The notes under the pieces: model-generated
The model's input: the letters and a program-made list of their open reading frames with translations, nothing else
What the model was told of the DNA's origin: nothing
Databases searched by the model: none
Shown: one piece after another, positions 25,837 to 29,638 of the stretch
How positions within the stretch are numbered: position 1 is the first letter of the stretch
Layout: each line of letters starts with the position of its first letter
Sequence record: PV245934.1
Length of the DNA: 64,000 nucleotides
Strand: one strand, 5' to 3'
From: Escherichia phage sutha
Program-made: the position numbers and the translations under genes

Positions 25837-26102
25837 TGCTCATCCTTCAAAGTTTGGTTTACAGCTCTATTATAAATCAATTCATCATTAAGCTCAGGCA
25901 AAGACTTATGATATGTAGTTCTAACTTTATTTCCTTGCATCCAGTGCTTGACGTAAATGAAACCTTGCTCTACACATTTTTTAAAAATTCGTTCGTCTTT
26001 TTGAGCTCGGAATTCTGGATTGCATCTAAAAAATTGATTTACGTGACCGTAATCACGTGTAGTATTACCTTCATTTTCATAAATAGTGTGAACGACAAAC
26101 AT
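25833..26102 (-). CDS. hypothetical protein (30.1 position)
   Basis: 89 aa, start overlaps the next ORF's stop and stop overlaps gene 30 start. Confidence 0.65.
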   Translation of the reverse strand: MFVVHTIYENEGNTTRDYGHVNQFFRCNPEFRAQKDERIFKKCVEQGFIYVKHWMQGNKVRTTYHKSLPELNDELIYNRAVNQTLKDEQ

Positions 26103-26965
26103 TAGAATGCTCCTTGGAAAATATTATCACCACTAGTAAATCTATTAAAATACCCTGCATCACCAGGCTTAGTATAACTCCACGTATGGAATGGATTCAT
26201 ATGATACGGGTGTGTATAATATGGATTATATGGATGTGTATAATATGGATTATACGGATTAAATCCAGGAGTTCTCCAGGTAGTGTTCCAACGAAAAGAA
26301 TCGTTTTTAACCATCTTCTCAATTACATCTTTTATAGCTTTTTCACTATCAAAACTTTTTTTATTTTCCTTCGGCGAAAAAAGCTTATTTTCTACATCAT
26401 TCCATGTATAAACTCGCTGAGCGGTTTTTGGAATATTGTCACGCTCTCCTCGCGCCATCCAATAAACAGGAACATTTAATATTTCACTCGCATGGTCGCA
26501 GTGGTGAGCGAGATCGTCAATATAACAAATTACGTTATATTTCTCTTTTGCCTTTTTGAATAACTCTTCTTTTGAAGAATCATGACCACACATCATTACT
26601 TCTGAGAAGGCACCAGGAAAAAGAGCATTTAAATTAAATTGACGATTCAACAGAGCGTCAATAGAATCACCCAATGCTGTAACAGCTACAAAATTATAAT
26701 CTTCTTTTAATTTGTTAATTACACACAGGGCATCTTTATACGGAGACAAGTAACGAATAAAATCTGAACGATTGTATTTTTCAATTAACTTGACGCCAAG
26801 TTCTTCATCACAATTAAAGAGTTTACCCGGAGAAATAAATTTCTCATCTTGGATCATTTTTAAAATATGTTCTAACGGAAGATTATATTTCTGAGCAAAA
26901 TAAGGAAGGCCTGATTGCCAGCTTAAACATACTCCATCAATATCAGTCAAAATAGTAGGCTTCAT
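26102..26965 (-). CDS. HAD-superfamily-like hydrolase with C-terminal PYNPYYTH tandem repeat (30.2 position)
   Basis: 287 aa; N-term MKPTILTDIDGVCL has HAD motif I DxDGV; C-term NPYNPYYTHPYNPYYTHPYHMNPFHTW encoded by a tandem 24-bp repeat at 26211-26257. Confidence 0.7.
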   Translation of the reverse strand: MKPTILTDIDGVCLSWQSGLPYFAQKYNLPLEHILKMIQDEKFISPGKLFNCDEELGVKLIEKYNRSDFIRYLSPYKDALCVINKLKEDYNFVAVTALGDSIDALLNRQFNLNALFPGAFSEVMMCGHDSSKEELFKKAKEKYNVICYIDDLAHHCDHASEILNVPVYWMARGERDNIPKTAQRVYTWNDVENKLFSPKENKKSFDSEKAIKDVIEKMVKNDSFRWNTTWRTPGFNPYNPYYTHPYNPYYTHPYHMNPFHTWSYTKPGDAGYFNRFTSGDNIFQGAF

Positions 26966-27426
26966 AGAGAGTCTCTTAATAGATTTAACATATCAATAAA
27001 TTCAGCTTCGGTTAGTATTGTATCATCTTTTGTTAGACCACTAGCCATGCTGTGCTTCAAAACTTTTCCTTTCGAGGCTTGTAATGCATCGCGAAAGCCC
27101 TTGTTTTGGAACGCTGCTTCAAAATATGCATTTGTGTATAATTCTTTCCACGCCGGAGAGTATCTTGAAAACGGAACTCCAAGCCAGAAGAGGGTCCCAC
27201 GGTCCTGAGCTCTAGCATAAGACCTTCCAGCTTGTTGGGCGGCAAGCCCGGATAACCCAAATATACGACGTTGCTGTTCAACATTTTTCACCTTACATCC
27301 TTGGAGGAATCCTTCGAGACCTCCAAATTGGATACCATCCATAACAAAAGGCCATTGGGCGAAATTACTTAATGCACATGATGGCCATCTAAAATTGCTT
27401 CTTATCTCTAACTCAGACATTTTCAA
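26962..27426 (-). CDS. NADAR / YbiA-like (DUF1768) protein (30.3 position)
   Basis: 154 aa; LSNFAQWPFVMDGIQFGGLEGFLQGCKV aligns with E. coli YbiA FSNFAAWPIKVDGKTWPTSEHYFQAQKF as recalled. Confidence 0.65.
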   Translation of the reverse strand: MKMSELEIRSNFRWPSCALSNFAQWPFVMDGIQFGGLEGFLQGCKVKNVEQQRRIFGLSGLAAQQAGRSYARAQDRGTLFWLGVPFSRYSPAWKELYTNAYFEAAFQNKGFRDALQASKGKVLKHSMASGLTKDDTILTEAEFIDMLNLLRDSL

Positions 27427-27619
27427 TACTTATAATTTCAACATCAGCCCAATGACCATAGCAAGGAAGACGAAATTCAACTGGCCAGTTAGGGTCCTTT
27501 TCTAATATAATAGACTGAACTTGTGGCTCTTCATGTTCATCGGTATACGGACCTTTATACGTTACTTTATATGTAACCTTAATGTACTGAATTCCAAAAA
27601 TCTTATTAATTATATTCAT
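27413..27619 (-). CDS. hypothetical small early protein
   Basis: 68 aa, overlapping start/stop with neighbours. Confidence 0.55.
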   Translation of the reverse strand: MNIINKIFGIQYIKVTYKVTYKGPYTDEHEEPQVQSIILEKDPNWPVEFRLPCYGHWADVEIISIENV

Positions 27620-27813
27620 ATTAATTCCTTTAATCCATAGATAGGAGATAATTCATCACCCATACGAAGGTCTTCATTTCCATCTACCCAGGAAACAATA
27701 TAAGCCTCTTTTATTTGAATACCACTCCATTTAAATGGAGGTAGAACCTTAGAAATTAATCCAGGTATACCAACTCCCTTTAATTCAACAGTTTGACCCA
27801 AAAAGAATTTCAT
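27616..27813 (-). CDS. hypothetical small early protein
   Basis: 65 aa, ATGA-type coupling with neighbours. Confidence 0.55.
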   Translation of the reverse strand: MKFFLGQTVELKGVGIPGLISKVLPPFKWSGIQIKEAYIVSWVDGNEDLRMGDELSPIYGLKELI

Positions 27814-28100
27814 TAGAACCTCATCTGAAAACCATGCGATTTAACATTACCGCCGCCAATATCAGAAATGTTAATTTCACGCGCAATTGAAGGGTCAATG
27901 TCAATTTCACGATTAAGTTTAGTGATAGCTAAAGTATCGCGGCCATTTACAGTACGGAACTCTAAAGGGCAGACTACATTAACATAGTTTTTAATCGATT
28001 CACTAGTAGGCTGCAAATGAGCAGGAAGGTCTTTAGGTGCCTTAGAAAAAACCACTTCACAGAAATTTTTGCGGGTATCAAAATAAGTAGTCATAAACAT
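27813..28100 (-). CDS. hypothetical early protein
   Basis: 95 aa ORF. Confidence 0.6.
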   Translation of the reverse strand: MFMTTYFDTRKNFCEVVFSKAPKDLPAHLQPTSESIKNYVNVVCPLEFRTVNGRDTLAITKLNREIDIDPSIAREINISDIGGGNVKSHGFQMRF

Positions 28101-28117
28101 AGTAATTTCCTCAGTAA

Positions 28118-28131
28118 GGGGCCGAAGCCCC
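28118..28131. terminator. hairpin GGGGC-cgaa-GCCCC
   Basis: Perfect GC stem with tetraloop followed by T-rich tract. Confidence 0.6.
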
Positions 28132-28141
28132 TCATTTTATT

Positions 28142-28507
28142 TTAAATATCAAATTCGTTAAGAACTACATCAAAGATTGCTTCAAGATGCTCAGGTTTAG
28201 CTCTGTTACTCAGAATATGACGAATCCAAGTTTTAACCAGAAGCTTGCGATTAACGCCATTCCAGCAAGGATGAGTCCCTAAATCGCGTTGACGAAAATC
28301 ATCATCTAATGCGATTTTAAAAGAAGAACCTTCTTTCGTGATTGAAACCGTAATGCCATTTTCAAATCGCATATAAACGTAGTTAGGAGTCATATACTGT
28401 TCAATTTCGCATACTGATCCATTTTGATGTTTCCAAAGGCAGATAGTATCAATAGAACCTGCAATACCGTTAGAAACATATTTACGTTCAAAGTTGATGT
28501 AATTCAT
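28142..28507 (-). CDS. hypothetical early protein
   Basis: 121 aa ORF. Confidence 0.6.
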   Translation of the reverse strand: MNYINFERKYVSNGIAGSIDTICLWKHQNGSVCEIEQYMTPNYVYMRFENGITVSITKEGSSFKIALDDDFRQRDLGTHPCWNGVNRKLLVKTWIRHILSNRAKPEHLEAIFDVVLNEFDI

Positions 28508-28575
28508 TTTTATTCTCCGAGATGTTTAATTGCGGTACAGGTATATAATATCATATCCTGTACCAAAGTAAACAA

Positions 28576-28908
28576 TTATTTTACTACTTTCCAGTGCTGC
28601 ATGTCAAGTTTACCAACTTTTTTCATCTTCTCAATTAAGCGTTCGGCACGTTGGCGAGCTGTAACATAATGCCATTCACCCAATTCATTTTGTTCAATTT
28701 TTCCAACGATTACTGTATTCAATTCATAAATCCAACCAGTAAAGAAATTATGAACTTGGATTGTAAAGGTGAAATCTGTTCCCATACCTTCTGTTGTTTC
28801 TACTTCAATAATATCACCTTCAACTGCCATTAAGAACCACATAGTTTCATCATATTTACCATTGAAGCATTTAGTTTTAACTGTGGCGTTCAGATTAATC
28901 GTTTTCAT
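28576..28908 (-). CDS. hypothetical early protein
   Basis: 110 aa ORF preceded by an early promoter. Confidence 0.6.
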   Translation of the reverse strand: MKTINLNATVKTKCFNGKYDETMWFLMAVEGDIIEVETTEGMGTDFTFTIQVHNFFTGWIYELNTVIVGKIEQNELGEWHYVTARQRAERLIEKMKKVGKLDMQHWKVVK

Positions 28909-28930
28909 TTTATTCTCCTTTGTTTGTGTA

Positions 28931-28965
28931 AGATAATACTATCACAAAGGAACTATACTGTAAAC
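28931..28965 (-). promoter_or_regulatory. early promoter (GTTTAC -35)
   Basis: Minus GTTTAC-AGTATAGTTCCTTTGTGA-TAGTATTAT upstream of the 110-aa ORF. Confidence 0.5.
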
Positions 28966-28995
28966 AACTTTATGCAATCTTTGGAAAATAAAAAA

Positions 28996-29013
28996 GGACT
29001 CCCGAAGGAGTCC
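28996..29013. terminator. hairpin GGACTCC-cgaa-GGAGTCC
   Basis: Perfect 7-bp stem with tetraloop and flanking A/T runs. Confidence 0.65.
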
Positions 29014-29018
29014 TCAAC

Positions 29019-29237
29019 TTATGCTTTCTGCTTACCAAAACGAGAAGCATCATCTCGAAGAACCGCACGTGCTCGGCGCATGATCTTCTCAACAGTTTGA
29101 TTGATACGAGAGTTCGACCCACGCTTGTAACCAGCGCGTTTAGAATCACCAACTTTCTTTTCAACTGCTTTCTTTGCTTTAACTTGTTTTGCCATTATAA
29201 ATTCTCTTTTAAATGAAAATGCAGGACTTATTGGCAT
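29019..29237 (-). CDS. small basic protein (30.9 position); start may be the internal Met at 29195
   Basis: K/R-rich 58-72 aa ORF MAKQVKAKKAVEKKVGDSKRAGYKRG... Confidence 0.55.
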   Translation of the reverse strand: MPISPAFSFKREFIMAKQVKAKKAVEKKVGDSKRAGYKRGSNSRINQTVEKIMRRARAVLRDDASRFGKQKA

Positions 29238-29389
29238 TGCCTGCGCAAGCCCTCAAGGGGAACATAGGTTTTGAGTATTTACCGACAGGATAACCATAAA
29301 CCTCGTCAACATTCAAGAGGTACACCGTAAAACAAAGTTCGACGGCTCCTCGATTTTAGCTCACACTAAGGCAGTGAATCTCCAATAAA

Positions 29390-29638
29390 TTACTTCAGTG
29401 TTACCACAAAGTGACGAACTGCTTTTCGTGCGGCAGAAGCCAGAGGCTTAGCATATTTAAGTTCATCTTTTTCCTGAAGCTCAGCAGCTAATGCAGTTTG
29501 AGCAGGATTCAGATGTTTGAAATAACGCAGGATTTCAAGAGCTTCGGCTTCAACATCAATAGATGCGCCATAGTTTTCGTGACCATTATTCCATGCGTTT
29601 CGTTGCAGTTCAAGAGCGTGTTGTAATTGTTTAATCAT
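29390..29638 (-). CDS. rIII: RIII lysis-inhibition accessory protein
   Basis: 82 aa; MIKQLQHALELQRNAWNNGHENYGASIDVEAEALEILRYF matches T4 rIII by recall. Confidence 0.92.
   Translation of the reverse strand: MIKQLQHALELQRNAWNNGHENYGASIDVEAEALEILRYFKHLNPAQTALAAELQEKDELKYAKPLASAARKAVRHFVVTLK

Follow-up and report, generated by a model that had tools for sequence, protein, structure and literature searches.

The closest described counterpart of the locus considered here is the 30.4-30.9 gene cluster of phage T4 (NP_049818-NP_049823), which lies between genes 30.3 and rIII. All six genes are non-essential in T4 growing on E. coli K-12, where each gene tolerates transposon insertions at 6/6 to 28/29 sites (21/21 for 30.4 and 19/20 for 30.5). 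Only 30.5 among them has a published partner: T4 gp30.5 binds the host polyphosphate kinase (Ppk) by co-immunoprecipitation and activates the bacterial immune sensor bNACHT11 (Robbins et al., bioRxiv 10.1101/2024.12.17.629029). The early transcript of T4 30.7, sampled 2 min post-infection, is cut at a GGAG by the RegB endoribonuclease and serves as a standard substrate of that enzyme (PMC9409239), and for 30.4, 30.6, 30.8 and 30.9 our search of the literature returned only genome annotations. The adjacent gene 30.3 encodes AdfN, which counters DarTG1 (PMC11257639; the HIDEN-SEQ preprint). Two other described systems are relevant: the PeSL cassettes, whose consensus in PST and T4 is a stem-loop followed by TTTACW-N17-TAYWAT (PMC4122927), and the leader pseudoknot of gene 32, the T4 precedent for translational autoregulation.

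With respect to the window analysed here, a stretch of 64,000 nucleotides from Escherichia phage sutha (PV245934.1), sequence comparison identifies the island between 30.3 and rIII as the T4 cluster 30.4-30.9, an ordinary finding that is already on record. The window proteins are 94-99% identical in amino acids to T4 gp30.4-30.9, with the same order and equal lengths (68, 65, 95, 121, 110 and 58 aa). An earlier note on this DNA had described six small co-directional ORFs between a NADAR-like gene and rIII; the ORF listing does contain six of 58-121 aa, all on the minus strand (as are the features located below), but what that note took for unknowns are annotated T4 genes. As posed, the observation matters little, the existence, order and regulatory signals of these genes having long been on record; its value is that of a pointer to conserved early proteins of the best-studied phage, two of which (30.7 and 30.8) are without an informative fold relative. 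On one flank, 30.3 (adfN; 26962..27420) encodes a NADAR DNA ADP-ribosylglycohydrolase (Pfam PF08010, E=1.8e-69; 149/152 residues identical to T4) and on the other, rIII (29390..29638) encodes the lysis-inhibition accessory protein (82/82 identical to T4 RIII; PHROG 1457). The overlapping stops and starts that had been attributed to the whole island do link 30.4, 30.5 and 30.6, as the ORF listing and the sequence show, with overlaps of 8 nt for 30.3/30.4, 4 nt (ATGA) for 30.4/30.5 and 1 nt (TAATG) for 30.5/30.6; 30.7, 30.8 and 30.9, in contrast, stand apart, the gaps measuring 41, 68 and 110 nt and containing the hairpins and promoters.

Near-identity, equal length and the same place between 30.3 and rIII mark 30.4, 30.5, 30.6 and 30.9 as orthologues of their T4 namesakes; they belong to no Pfam family and match PHROGs 2042, 1690, 2153 and 1427, respectively (E-values 8e-34 to 1e-50). 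Gene 30.4 (27413..27619) encodes a small beta-rich protein of 68 aa (64/68 identical to T4 gp30.4; E=8e-34 for its PHROG) that is present in 710 phage records, all T4-like, with a dN/dS of 0.18-0.37. Its neighbour 30.5 (27616..27813; 65 aa) is identical to T4 gp30.5 at 64/65 positions, the sole difference being an I instead of a V at the C-terminal residue; the motif V..L...IPG...Y.V.W.DG is kept across 14 diverse homologues and dN/dS is 0.14-0.33. For 30.6 (27813..28100; 95 aa, 93/95 identical to T4; E=1e-50 for its PHROG), dN/dS against T4 and SA20RB is <=0.04. Profile searches of the PDB gave no match for 30.4 and no relatives for 30.6.

The two longest genes are both members of Pfam families. 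The 121-aa product of 30.7 (28142..28507) falls in PF06919 (173.7 bits, cut-off 27, E=1.3e-51; residues 1-120 align with profile positions 1-118 of 118), and AF2 predicts a seven-strand meander sheet followed by two helices, at moderate confidence (pLDDT 78.7, with a range of 48 to 79 over five models). The 110-aa product of 30.8 (28576..28908) matches PF06019 over its full length (197.9 bits, cut-off 25, E=5.6e-59), a family carried by 60/60 matches in its profile search, and is modelled as a compact beta-rich domain with a C-terminal helix (pLDDT 95). Fold searches with these two models returned no informative neighbours, and for 30.8 none among solved structures; as far as the predicted structures go, neither protein has a confident housekeeping homologue, which is the result that the earlier note had said would speak against its own reading. 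When all six proteins were scanned against Pfam, NCBIfam and PADLOC, only PF06919 and PF06019, the families of 30.7 and 30.8 themselves, came up; no PADLOC model matched at E<=1, these models describing defence and not anti-defence proteins. Similarly, single-sequence and profile searches of the PDB with all six yielded nothing below E=0.03, the best matches (LEO1, CD8 and aminopeptidase N) being short chance matches. The statement that none of the ORFs shows an obvious enzyme motif is borne out by these searches.

The last ORF, 30.9 (29019..29195; 58 aa, 57/58 identical to T4), is indeed the K/R-rich basic protein that had been described: its translation has 11 K and 8 R (19 K/R) against 5 D/E, and the homologue alignment contains the invariant motif SKRAxYKR..N.R. 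An alternative ORF call (29019-29237) gives 72 aa, and its upstream ATG had been taken as the end of the island; judging by conservation, however, the true start is the ATG at 29195, which yields the 58 aa annotated in T4, because the beginning MAKQ.../MSKAK... is conserved across related phages and the in-frame stretch upstream of it is not. The 72-aa reading was rejected on this ground, as were the 97-aa and 92-aa database variants, whose upstream parts are unconserved or which are frameshift or chimeric calls. An exhaustive HMMER search of 1.84 billion representative proteins found 4 clusters for 30.9, all of them close relatives, and no distant homologues; one Pseudomonas phage homologue has a lysine/alanine/proline-rich tail. 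In Klebsiella Jiaodavirus phages 30.9 is 86-93% identical, compared with 32-50% for the neighbouring genes. Its synonymous divergence from these phages is also unusually low (dS 0.35-0.43), whereas that of the neighbours is saturated.

Since all six ORFs evolve under purifying selection, their pattern of substitution identifies them as real genes. Where the comparison is informative, dN/dS lies at 0.04-0.4; single values peak at 0.52-0.54, against very remote homologues whose dS is saturated, and the one value close to 1, that of 30.5 against L002, comes from a pair with almost no divergence. Homologues of each ORF are found in 710-1041 phage records, all six being restricted to T4-like phages except that the 30.8 family extends to a few other myoviruses, and the lengths and the start/stop arrangement are kept from T4 to JS98. 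The gene content nevertheless varies: 30.4 and 30.6 escape tblastn detection at several of the syntenic loci, and natural in-frame deletions join the N-terminus of 30.7 or 30.8 to the C-terminus of 30.3.

The regulatory layout is also that of T4, with a terminator after 30.9, early promoters before 30.8 and 30.7, GGAG sites and a UUCG hairpin after 30.7, and it confirms the internal early promoters and terminator hairpins of the earlier note. The intrinsic terminator of 30.9 (GGACUCC-UUCG-GGAGUCC plus a U tract; 28996-29013) is followed by the putative T4-type early promoter of 30.8 (TTTACA-N17-TAGTAT; -35 at 28964-28959, -10 at 28941-28936), together a candidate PeSL-type cassette (28936..29013) whose elements are annotated in SA20RB too. 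A match to the RNA family Atu_C8 (28980-29063; E=0.0011), which stays under the gathering score, was set aside, as it overlaps this terminator and is probably just that hairpin. The second putative T4-type early promoter, before 30.7 (TTTACT-N16-TATTAT; 28534..28573, -35 at 28572-28567, -10 at 28550-28545), is overlapped by a GGTACAGG...CCTGTACC hairpin (28534-28564) whose SA20RB equivalent is annotated as a terminator; homology to T4 suggests that the site functions as a promoter. Generic promoter matches in the region (9, against 9.7 expected in shuffles) are not raised, so both assignments rest on position and T4 homology and not on statistics. Between 30.7 and 30.6, 5 nt before the Shine-Dalgarno of 30.6, there is a GGGGCUUCGGCCCC hairpin with a UUCG tetraloop (28118..28131); on the coding strand it lacks a U tract, the scan lists it on the plus strand only, and the same site is an annotated terminator in SA20RB. 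It could be an mRNA-stabilising or processing element. Finally, GGAG lies 8-10 nt before the ATG in the Shine-Dalgarno of both 30.7 (28515..28518), the RegB site, and 30.8 (28915..28918; AAAGGAGAAUAAAAUG), a candidate site at which the RegB GGAG rule predicts cleavage.

Considering these features, the island probably consists of six genuine but dispensable accessory genes of a plastic Tequatrovirus region, whose products are small non-enzymatic binders of host components. We favour this model because of the 30.5-Ppk interaction and the activation of bNACHT11, the absence of any catalytic family or motif in the six proteins and the compact fold of 30.8 without solved relatives; for the five proteins other than 30.5 the binding mechanism is extrapolated from their smallness, the absence of motifs and the genomic setting. 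Gene 30.9 would be transcribed by read-through from rIII, ending at its own intrinsic terminator, and the two early promoters would drive 30.8 and 30.7-30.4, the position of these promoters suggesting early timing for 30.4-30.6 and 30.8. Early shut-off would come from RegB, which would cleave 30.7, as in T4, and presumably 30.8 at the GGAG of their ribosome-binding sites. As in T4, gp30.5 would bind the E. coli polyphosphate kinase and be recognised by bNACHT11, while gp30.4, 30.6, 30.7 and 30.8 may each bind one host protein and thereby retune metabolism or blunt the host response, perhaps to the benefit of the phage only on particular hosts or under particular conditions. As for gp30.9, its composition suggests that it binds nucleic acid, with RNA or the ribosome as the likeliest target, because it is extremely basic and has the invariant SKRAGYKR motif.

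Alternatively, each of the small proteins could be a dedicated inhibitor of one bacterial immune system, like AdfN, a reading that we consider possible but unlikely. The product of the neighbouring 30.3 is an established anti-DarTG1 enzyme, the six genes have the non-essentiality on K-12 and the patchy distribution typical of anti-defence genes, and other T4 ORFs of unknown function without domains or structural neighbours have proved to be inhibitors (nrdC.1 of Septu, tk.4 of DarTG2). However, 30.5, the sole characterised member of the island, sets off a defence system and has a metabolic kinase as its binding partner. Moreover, none of 30.4-30.9 figures in the main text on the T4 transposon screens among the genes conditionally essential against RexAB, RnlAB, CBASS, DarTG1 or DarTG2, in minimal medium or on the clinical isolates discussed there, and the PADLOC models are unmatched, although that library describes defence rather than anti-defence proteins. 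The suggestion in the earlier note of a reservoir of host-takeover and anti-defence functions is thus plausible for a plastic region beside AdfN, but none of the six has been shown to be an inhibitor; AdfN is the product of the flanking 30.3, and 30.5 is an activator of bNACHT11.

The non-coding spacer between rIII and 30.9, the leader of 30.9 (29196..29389; 194 nt), is longer than is usual in a T4-type genome, where packing is tight. Comparison of 30 loci divides it into module B, a hairpin or possible H-type pseudoknot (29263-29307), a motif CCCCUUGAGGGCUUG (29246-29260) and a start-proximal hairpin (29221-29244) followed by a possible anti-SD/SD pairing (UUUUC...GAGAA), this hairpin being conserved in structure and variable in sequence ahead of the 30.9 start. 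A covariance model of module B places one copy in each genome, in all cases immediately 3' of rIII. Its stem P1, which joins 29301-29307 to 29284-29289, is 86% paired, with compensatory change in 4/6 pairs and a score reached by 0/500 shuffles; P2, formed by the loop with a downstream segment and here consisting of GGUU with AACC, covaries in relatives (3/5000 permutations). A putative multi-stem RNA of ~135 nt is also present in the spacer of JS98, KP179 and many other relatives. Rfam searches of the leader at E<=10 gave only chance-level matches (MIR4221, 16 bits; DUF2815 RNA, 14.5 bits with a gathering score of 41), and those of the JS98 and KP179 loci at E<=0.1 gave none. Among the candidates that we rejected are a preQ1-I-like riboswitch, suggested by the stem, loop pairing and A-rich tail of module B but without support in Rfam; a small leader ORF (MLTRFMVILS...), which has stops or a missing start codon in relatives and whose bases covary as a helix; and a T4 late promoter in the conserved GTTAAATA, where relatives carry GTAAAACA or GTAAAAAG.

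The structured leader of 30.9 is the only element of the region for which we found no description and, if real, it would be a new cis-regulatory RNA in T4 post-transcriptional control. That the spacer represents an undescribed family of structured RNA modules with gp30.9 as their RNA-binding partner or autoregulator seems distinctly doubtful; were it so, spacer RNA and gp30.9 would constitute either a second translational operator system of the gene 32 type or a small phage ribonucleoprotein. We hold it improbable that 30.9 and its leader are an autoregulated RNA-protein unit, like gp32 on its leader pseudoknot, with the other five ORFs as unrelated cargo. All Tevenvirinae loci examined have, between rIII and 30.9, a conserved single-copy hairpin with compensatory changes, but the order of the modules varies among phages, module B often lying directly after rIII and 200-300 nt from 30.9, and it is present in L010, where no 30.9 was detected, so that it may belong to rIII or act alone. 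The loop-to-downstream pairing covaries, but is only 4 bp long in the window and in T4. The start-proximal hairpin with its possible anti-SD pairing, the extreme basicity and unusually conserved synonymous sites of 30.9, and the gene 32 precedent all favour such a unit, whereas the folding energy of the whole spacer is unexceptional (MFE z-score = -1.08). That some of the six are chance ORFs or decaying pseudogenes of a hyperplastic region has in its favour their shortness, their lack of known domains, the loss of several of them in relatives and their non-essentiality, but is already contradicted by purifying selection on all six, by the lengths and start/stop arrangement shared from T4 to JS98, by motifs conserved across homologues of 30-50% identity, by the confident 30.8 model and by the activity of 30.5 in vivo, which leave this reading a negligible chance.

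Like the gene 32 leader, the rIII-30.9 spacer has an H-type pseudoknot, here a candidate, and behind it an A/U-rich stretch with UUAAA, well upstream of the start codon, but there is no sequence similarity, the position of module B relative to 30.9 is variable, and P2 is weak in T4-type phages. With AdfN (gp30.3), AdfM/tk.4, nrdC.1 and Acb1 the six genes share their neighbourhood and gene class, being small, non-essential on K-12 and conditionally useful; AdfN, AdfM and Acb1, however, are enzymes with recognisable folds, whereas the six of the window are without an enzymatic fold or a demonstrated defence target.

The 30.9/30.8 junction resembles in part the PeSL cassettes of T4-like hyperplastic regions (PMC2839356, PMC4122927), a stem-loop standing directly before a putative promoter: there is a 9-bp stem with a U tract, the -35 and the spacing fit, and the -10 agrees at 5/6 positions, with a G where the consensus has Y. 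As in the described cassettes, the flanked ORFs are of unknown function, and which genes are present differs from one relative to the next. The 30.8/30.7 junction agrees only in part, its spacer being N16 and its hairpin overlapping rather than preceding the promoter, and the natural deletions found here join coding sequences (30.7 or 30.8 to 30.3) and not PeSLs. Closest of all is the T4 cluster 30.4-30.9 itself, which agrees with the window in order, strand, lengths, overlaps, spacers, terminator and promoters, and differs by a few substitutions and by a rIII-30.9 spacer of 244 nt (194 nt in the window) that holds an extra hairpin-containing insert of ~44 nt. The window allele of gp30.5 is a single residue away from the T4 allele, for which Ppk binding and bNACHT11 activation were demonstrated. 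The two characterised neighbours, AdfN, which reverses DNA ADP-ribosylation, and 30.5, which binds Ppk and is sensed by bNACHT11, indicate the typical role of such genes.

The six small minus-strand ORFs between 30.3 and rIII, which the earlier note had presented as unknowns, are already known genes, and on sequence comparison we regard their identity as T4 30.4-30.9 as settled. A megablast search with 27300-29400 matched 784 phage records, 450 of them covering at least 80% of the query, and the best matches (97-99% identical) come nearly all from T4-like phages of Escherichia, Shigella or Yersinia. The gene order is that of the T4 reference annotation: ligase 30 – 30.1 – 30.2 – 30.3 – 30.4 – 30.5 – 30.6 – 30.7 – 30.8 – 30.9 – rIII – 31. 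In pairwise alignments with T4, 64/68 residues are identical for 30.4 (27413-27619, 68 aa), 64/65 for 30.5 (27616-27813, 65 aa), 93/95 for 30.6 (27813-28100, 95 aa), 117/121 for 30.7 (28142-28507, 121 aa) and 109/110 for 30.8 (28576-28908, 110 aa); 30.9 (58 aa from an internal ATG at 29195 in the ORF 29019-29237) has 57/58. Thus six co-directional ORFs of 58-121 aa are indeed present, all equal in length to T4 gp30.4-30.9 with 30.9 counted from 29195. The overlapping stops and starts attributed to the whole island are found in 30.4, 30.5 and 30.6, which are translationally coupled (overlaps with their neighbours of 8, 4 and 1 nt), but not in 30.7, 30.8 and 30.9, which are set apart by spacers of 41, 68 and 110 nt. 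The right-hand limit previously placed at 29237 is an upstream ATG that we reject as the 30.9 start: the in-frame stretch following it is wholly changed among relatives while the MAKQ/MSKAK start is kept, and the 58-aa form is therefore gene 30.9.

As had been noted from the sequence, none of the six carries an enzyme motif. Only the self-named Pfam families PF06919 (30.7) and PF06019 (30.8) were matched, NCBIfam and PADLOC gave no match for any of the proteins, neither single-sequence nor profile searches found a sequence-related PDB chain, and all six PHROG families are labelled "unknown function". The conserved pattern of 30.5, V..L...IPG...Y.V.W.DG, may point to a small beta-barrel. The last product, 30.9, is basic as described (19 K/R versus 5 D/E), with an invariant core SKRAxYKR..N.R, and among 1.84 billion representative proteins its only matches form four clusters of close relatives.

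Searches of the literature by gene name, accession and locus tag returned nothing on 30.4, 30.6, 30.8 or 30.9. Among the phage proteins, several in number, that activate the NLR-like sensor bNACHT11 is T4 30.5, and T4 escapes this sensor once 30.5 and two other activators are deleted; in cells without bNACHT11 these deletions left titre and plaque morphology unchanged. E. coli polyphosphate kinase co-purifies with tagged 30.5, as confirmed by reciprocal co-IP, and metabolic reprogramming has been proposed (Robbins et al., bioRxiv 10.1101/2024.12.17.629029). T4 30.1-30.9 are all non-essential on K-12, with HIDEN-SEQ insertions in 30.4-30.9 at 21/21, 19/20, 22/22, 28/29, 25/25 and 6/6 sites, respectively, and none of these six is among the conditionally essential genes that the text of that study names (Humolli et al., bioRxiv 10.1101/2025.11.20.689424). 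The flanking 30.3 is, according to published work, AdfN, a NADAR DNA ADP-ribosylglycohydrolase necessary and sufficient against DarTG1. Most likely the six products would act as small non-enzymatic binders of host components, made in the first minutes of infection until RegB, the T4 endoribonuclease that cuts GGAG, shuts off their production; of the six, only T4 30.5 has been shown to act in this way, and we infer it for the other five. Of the host-takeover and anti-defence functions suggested earlier, the former is plausible and the latter unproven: an anti-defence role for any of 30.4 or 30.6-30.9 is possible, yet no result supports it.

That some of the six might be chance ORFs or pseudogenes is excluded by matches to 710-1041 phage records for each (tblastn), by Nei-Gojobori dN/dS of 0.04-0.4 for every ORF in informative comparisons with progressively more distant homologues (the top single values, 0.52-0.54, come from very distant homologues, where dS is saturated) and by conserved motifs that persist down to 30-50% identity; by these sequence criteria all six are genes. 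Against Klebsiella-phage-type relatives the dS of 30.9 is only 0.35-0.43, versus saturation (dS > 1.3) for 30.5, 30.7 and 30.8 of the same genome pairs, which points either to nucleotide-level constraint or to a 30.9 block that was recently exchanged (laterally) between phages.

All six are restricted to Straboviridae of enterobacteria and relatives among the tblastn phage records; the 30.8 family alone extends to phi92-like, Aeromonas and KB57-like phages. The 37 viral contigs retrieved by way of 30.8 preserve the order rIII – 30.9 – 30.8 – 30.7 – (30.6) – 30.5 – (30.4) – (30.3) – 30.2 – ligase; detection of 30.4, 30.6 and 30.3 often fails, and many contigs have extra DNA between 30.8 and 30.7. 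In two database proteins from phage and metagenome records, P0011 and P0024, an N-terminus from 30.7 or 30.8 is joined in frame to the C-terminal half of 30.3/AdfN; judging from their sequences, these are natural deletions removing 30.4-30.6 or 30.4-30.7 (compare 26962-28908 of the window). The 30.7 junction lies at ...RDLGT, within a short shared RD(L/R)GT motif. In Pseudomonas phage PspYZU05 the 30.9 homologue (L005 2456-2734) is 92 aa long with a K/A/P-rich C-terminal tail and directly follows gene 31; in the interval from gene 31 to 30.2, rIII, 30.8 and 30.7 are undetected. Conservation within the block is lowest for 30.2 (26102-26965), which has 287 aa versus 278 aa in T4, only 90% identity and a duplicated NPYNPYYTHPY repeat at its C-terminus.

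In 16 T4-type phages, the region upstream of gene 30 reportedly contains RegB sites, a terminator and two early promoters, as mapped by Truncaite et al. (Virology, 2006). On the minus strand here, 30.9 is followed by a textbook intrinsic terminator (28996-29013, GGACUCC-UUCG-GGAGUCC plus U6) and then by a T4-type early promoter (28964-28936, TTTACA-N17-TAGTAT) 28 nt upstream of the 30.8 start. A second promoter (28572-28545, TTTACT-N16-TATTAT), after 30.8, overlaps the GGTACAGG/CCTGTACC hairpin. A generic scan showed no promoter enrichment over shuffles (9 found, 9.7 expected), so that the promoter calls rest on position, the T4-type GTTTAC -35 and identical elements annotated in phage SA20RB. 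The hairpin after 30.7 (28118-28131, GGGGCUUCGGCCCC) lacks a U tract. The -10 before 30.8, TAGTAT, differs at one position from the PeSL consensus, a stem-loop followed by TTTACW-N17-TAYWAT (PMC4122927). GGAG occurs in the Shine-Dalgarno sequences of both 30.7 (28515-28518) and 30.8 (28915-28918); the T4 30.7 early transcript at 2 min post-infection is a standard RegB substrate, cut at GGAG (PMC9409239).

As posed, the six-ORF finding is of low interest, and the one item deserving follow-up is the structured leader of 30.9. The rIII-30.9 spacer (29196-29389), at 194 nt here against 244 nt in T4 and some 350 nt in both JS98 and KP179, seems long for T4-type genomes; across the 30 loci compared it is made of conserved modules in varying order. 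One of these, module B (29263-29307, minus strand), has a 6-bp bulged stem (P1, GACgAGG/CCUGUC) with a loop of 11 nt; the A-rich linker GGUAAAUACUCAA leads to a segment able to pair with the loop (P2). By covariance-model search, each genome among the Tevenvirinae loci examined has a single copy of it, in every case a short way 3' of rIII; the 64-kb window contains no second credible one. P1 is 86% paired, with compensatory changes in 4/6 pairs and a covariation score of 0.287 versus 0.092 in shuffles (0/500 reach it); slid controls collapse. P2 covaries among relatives (GUAGU/ACUAC, GUUGGUU/AACCAAC, GUGAG/CUCAC), its run length being reached by only 3/5000 partner permutations, and is reduced to GGUU/AACC in the window and T4. 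Module B is accordingly described here as a candidate H-type pseudoknot. A hairpin of variable sequence always lies directly upstream of the 30.9 start in the loci compared, where anti-SD/SD pairing is possible.

The spacer motif GU(A/U)CCC(C)UU(G/C)GAGG(G/A)CUUG (29246-29260, minus strand) is kept in all relatives at varying positions: in the window and T4 it adjoins the 30.9-proximal hairpin on its 5' side, and in several other phages it comes directly after the rIII stop. A GC-richer, multi-stem RNA-like module of ~135 nt is found in KP179 (L003 2202-2336), JS98 (L004 2219-2353) and 12 other loci, at differing places relative to module B, and is missing from the window and T4; RNAalifold gives it 40 pairs with compensatory change in 13, and its conservation reaches about 90% or higher across phage genera with flanking proteins 65-76% identical. 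An insert of ~44 nt with the inverted repeat GATTAATGATTTGCGAATCATTATAG, present in T4 (L001 8700-8745), JS98 and others, is missing from the window (~29330) and SA20RB. Rfam had no match for module B, the start-proximal hairpin or the ~135-nt module (none at E<=0.1 for the last), and the MFE of the spacer as a whole does not stand out (z = -1.08). We regard the structured 30.9 leader as a real, unexplained feature; speculatively, it might be tied to gp30.9 itself, on the model of the gene 32 leader pseudoknot.
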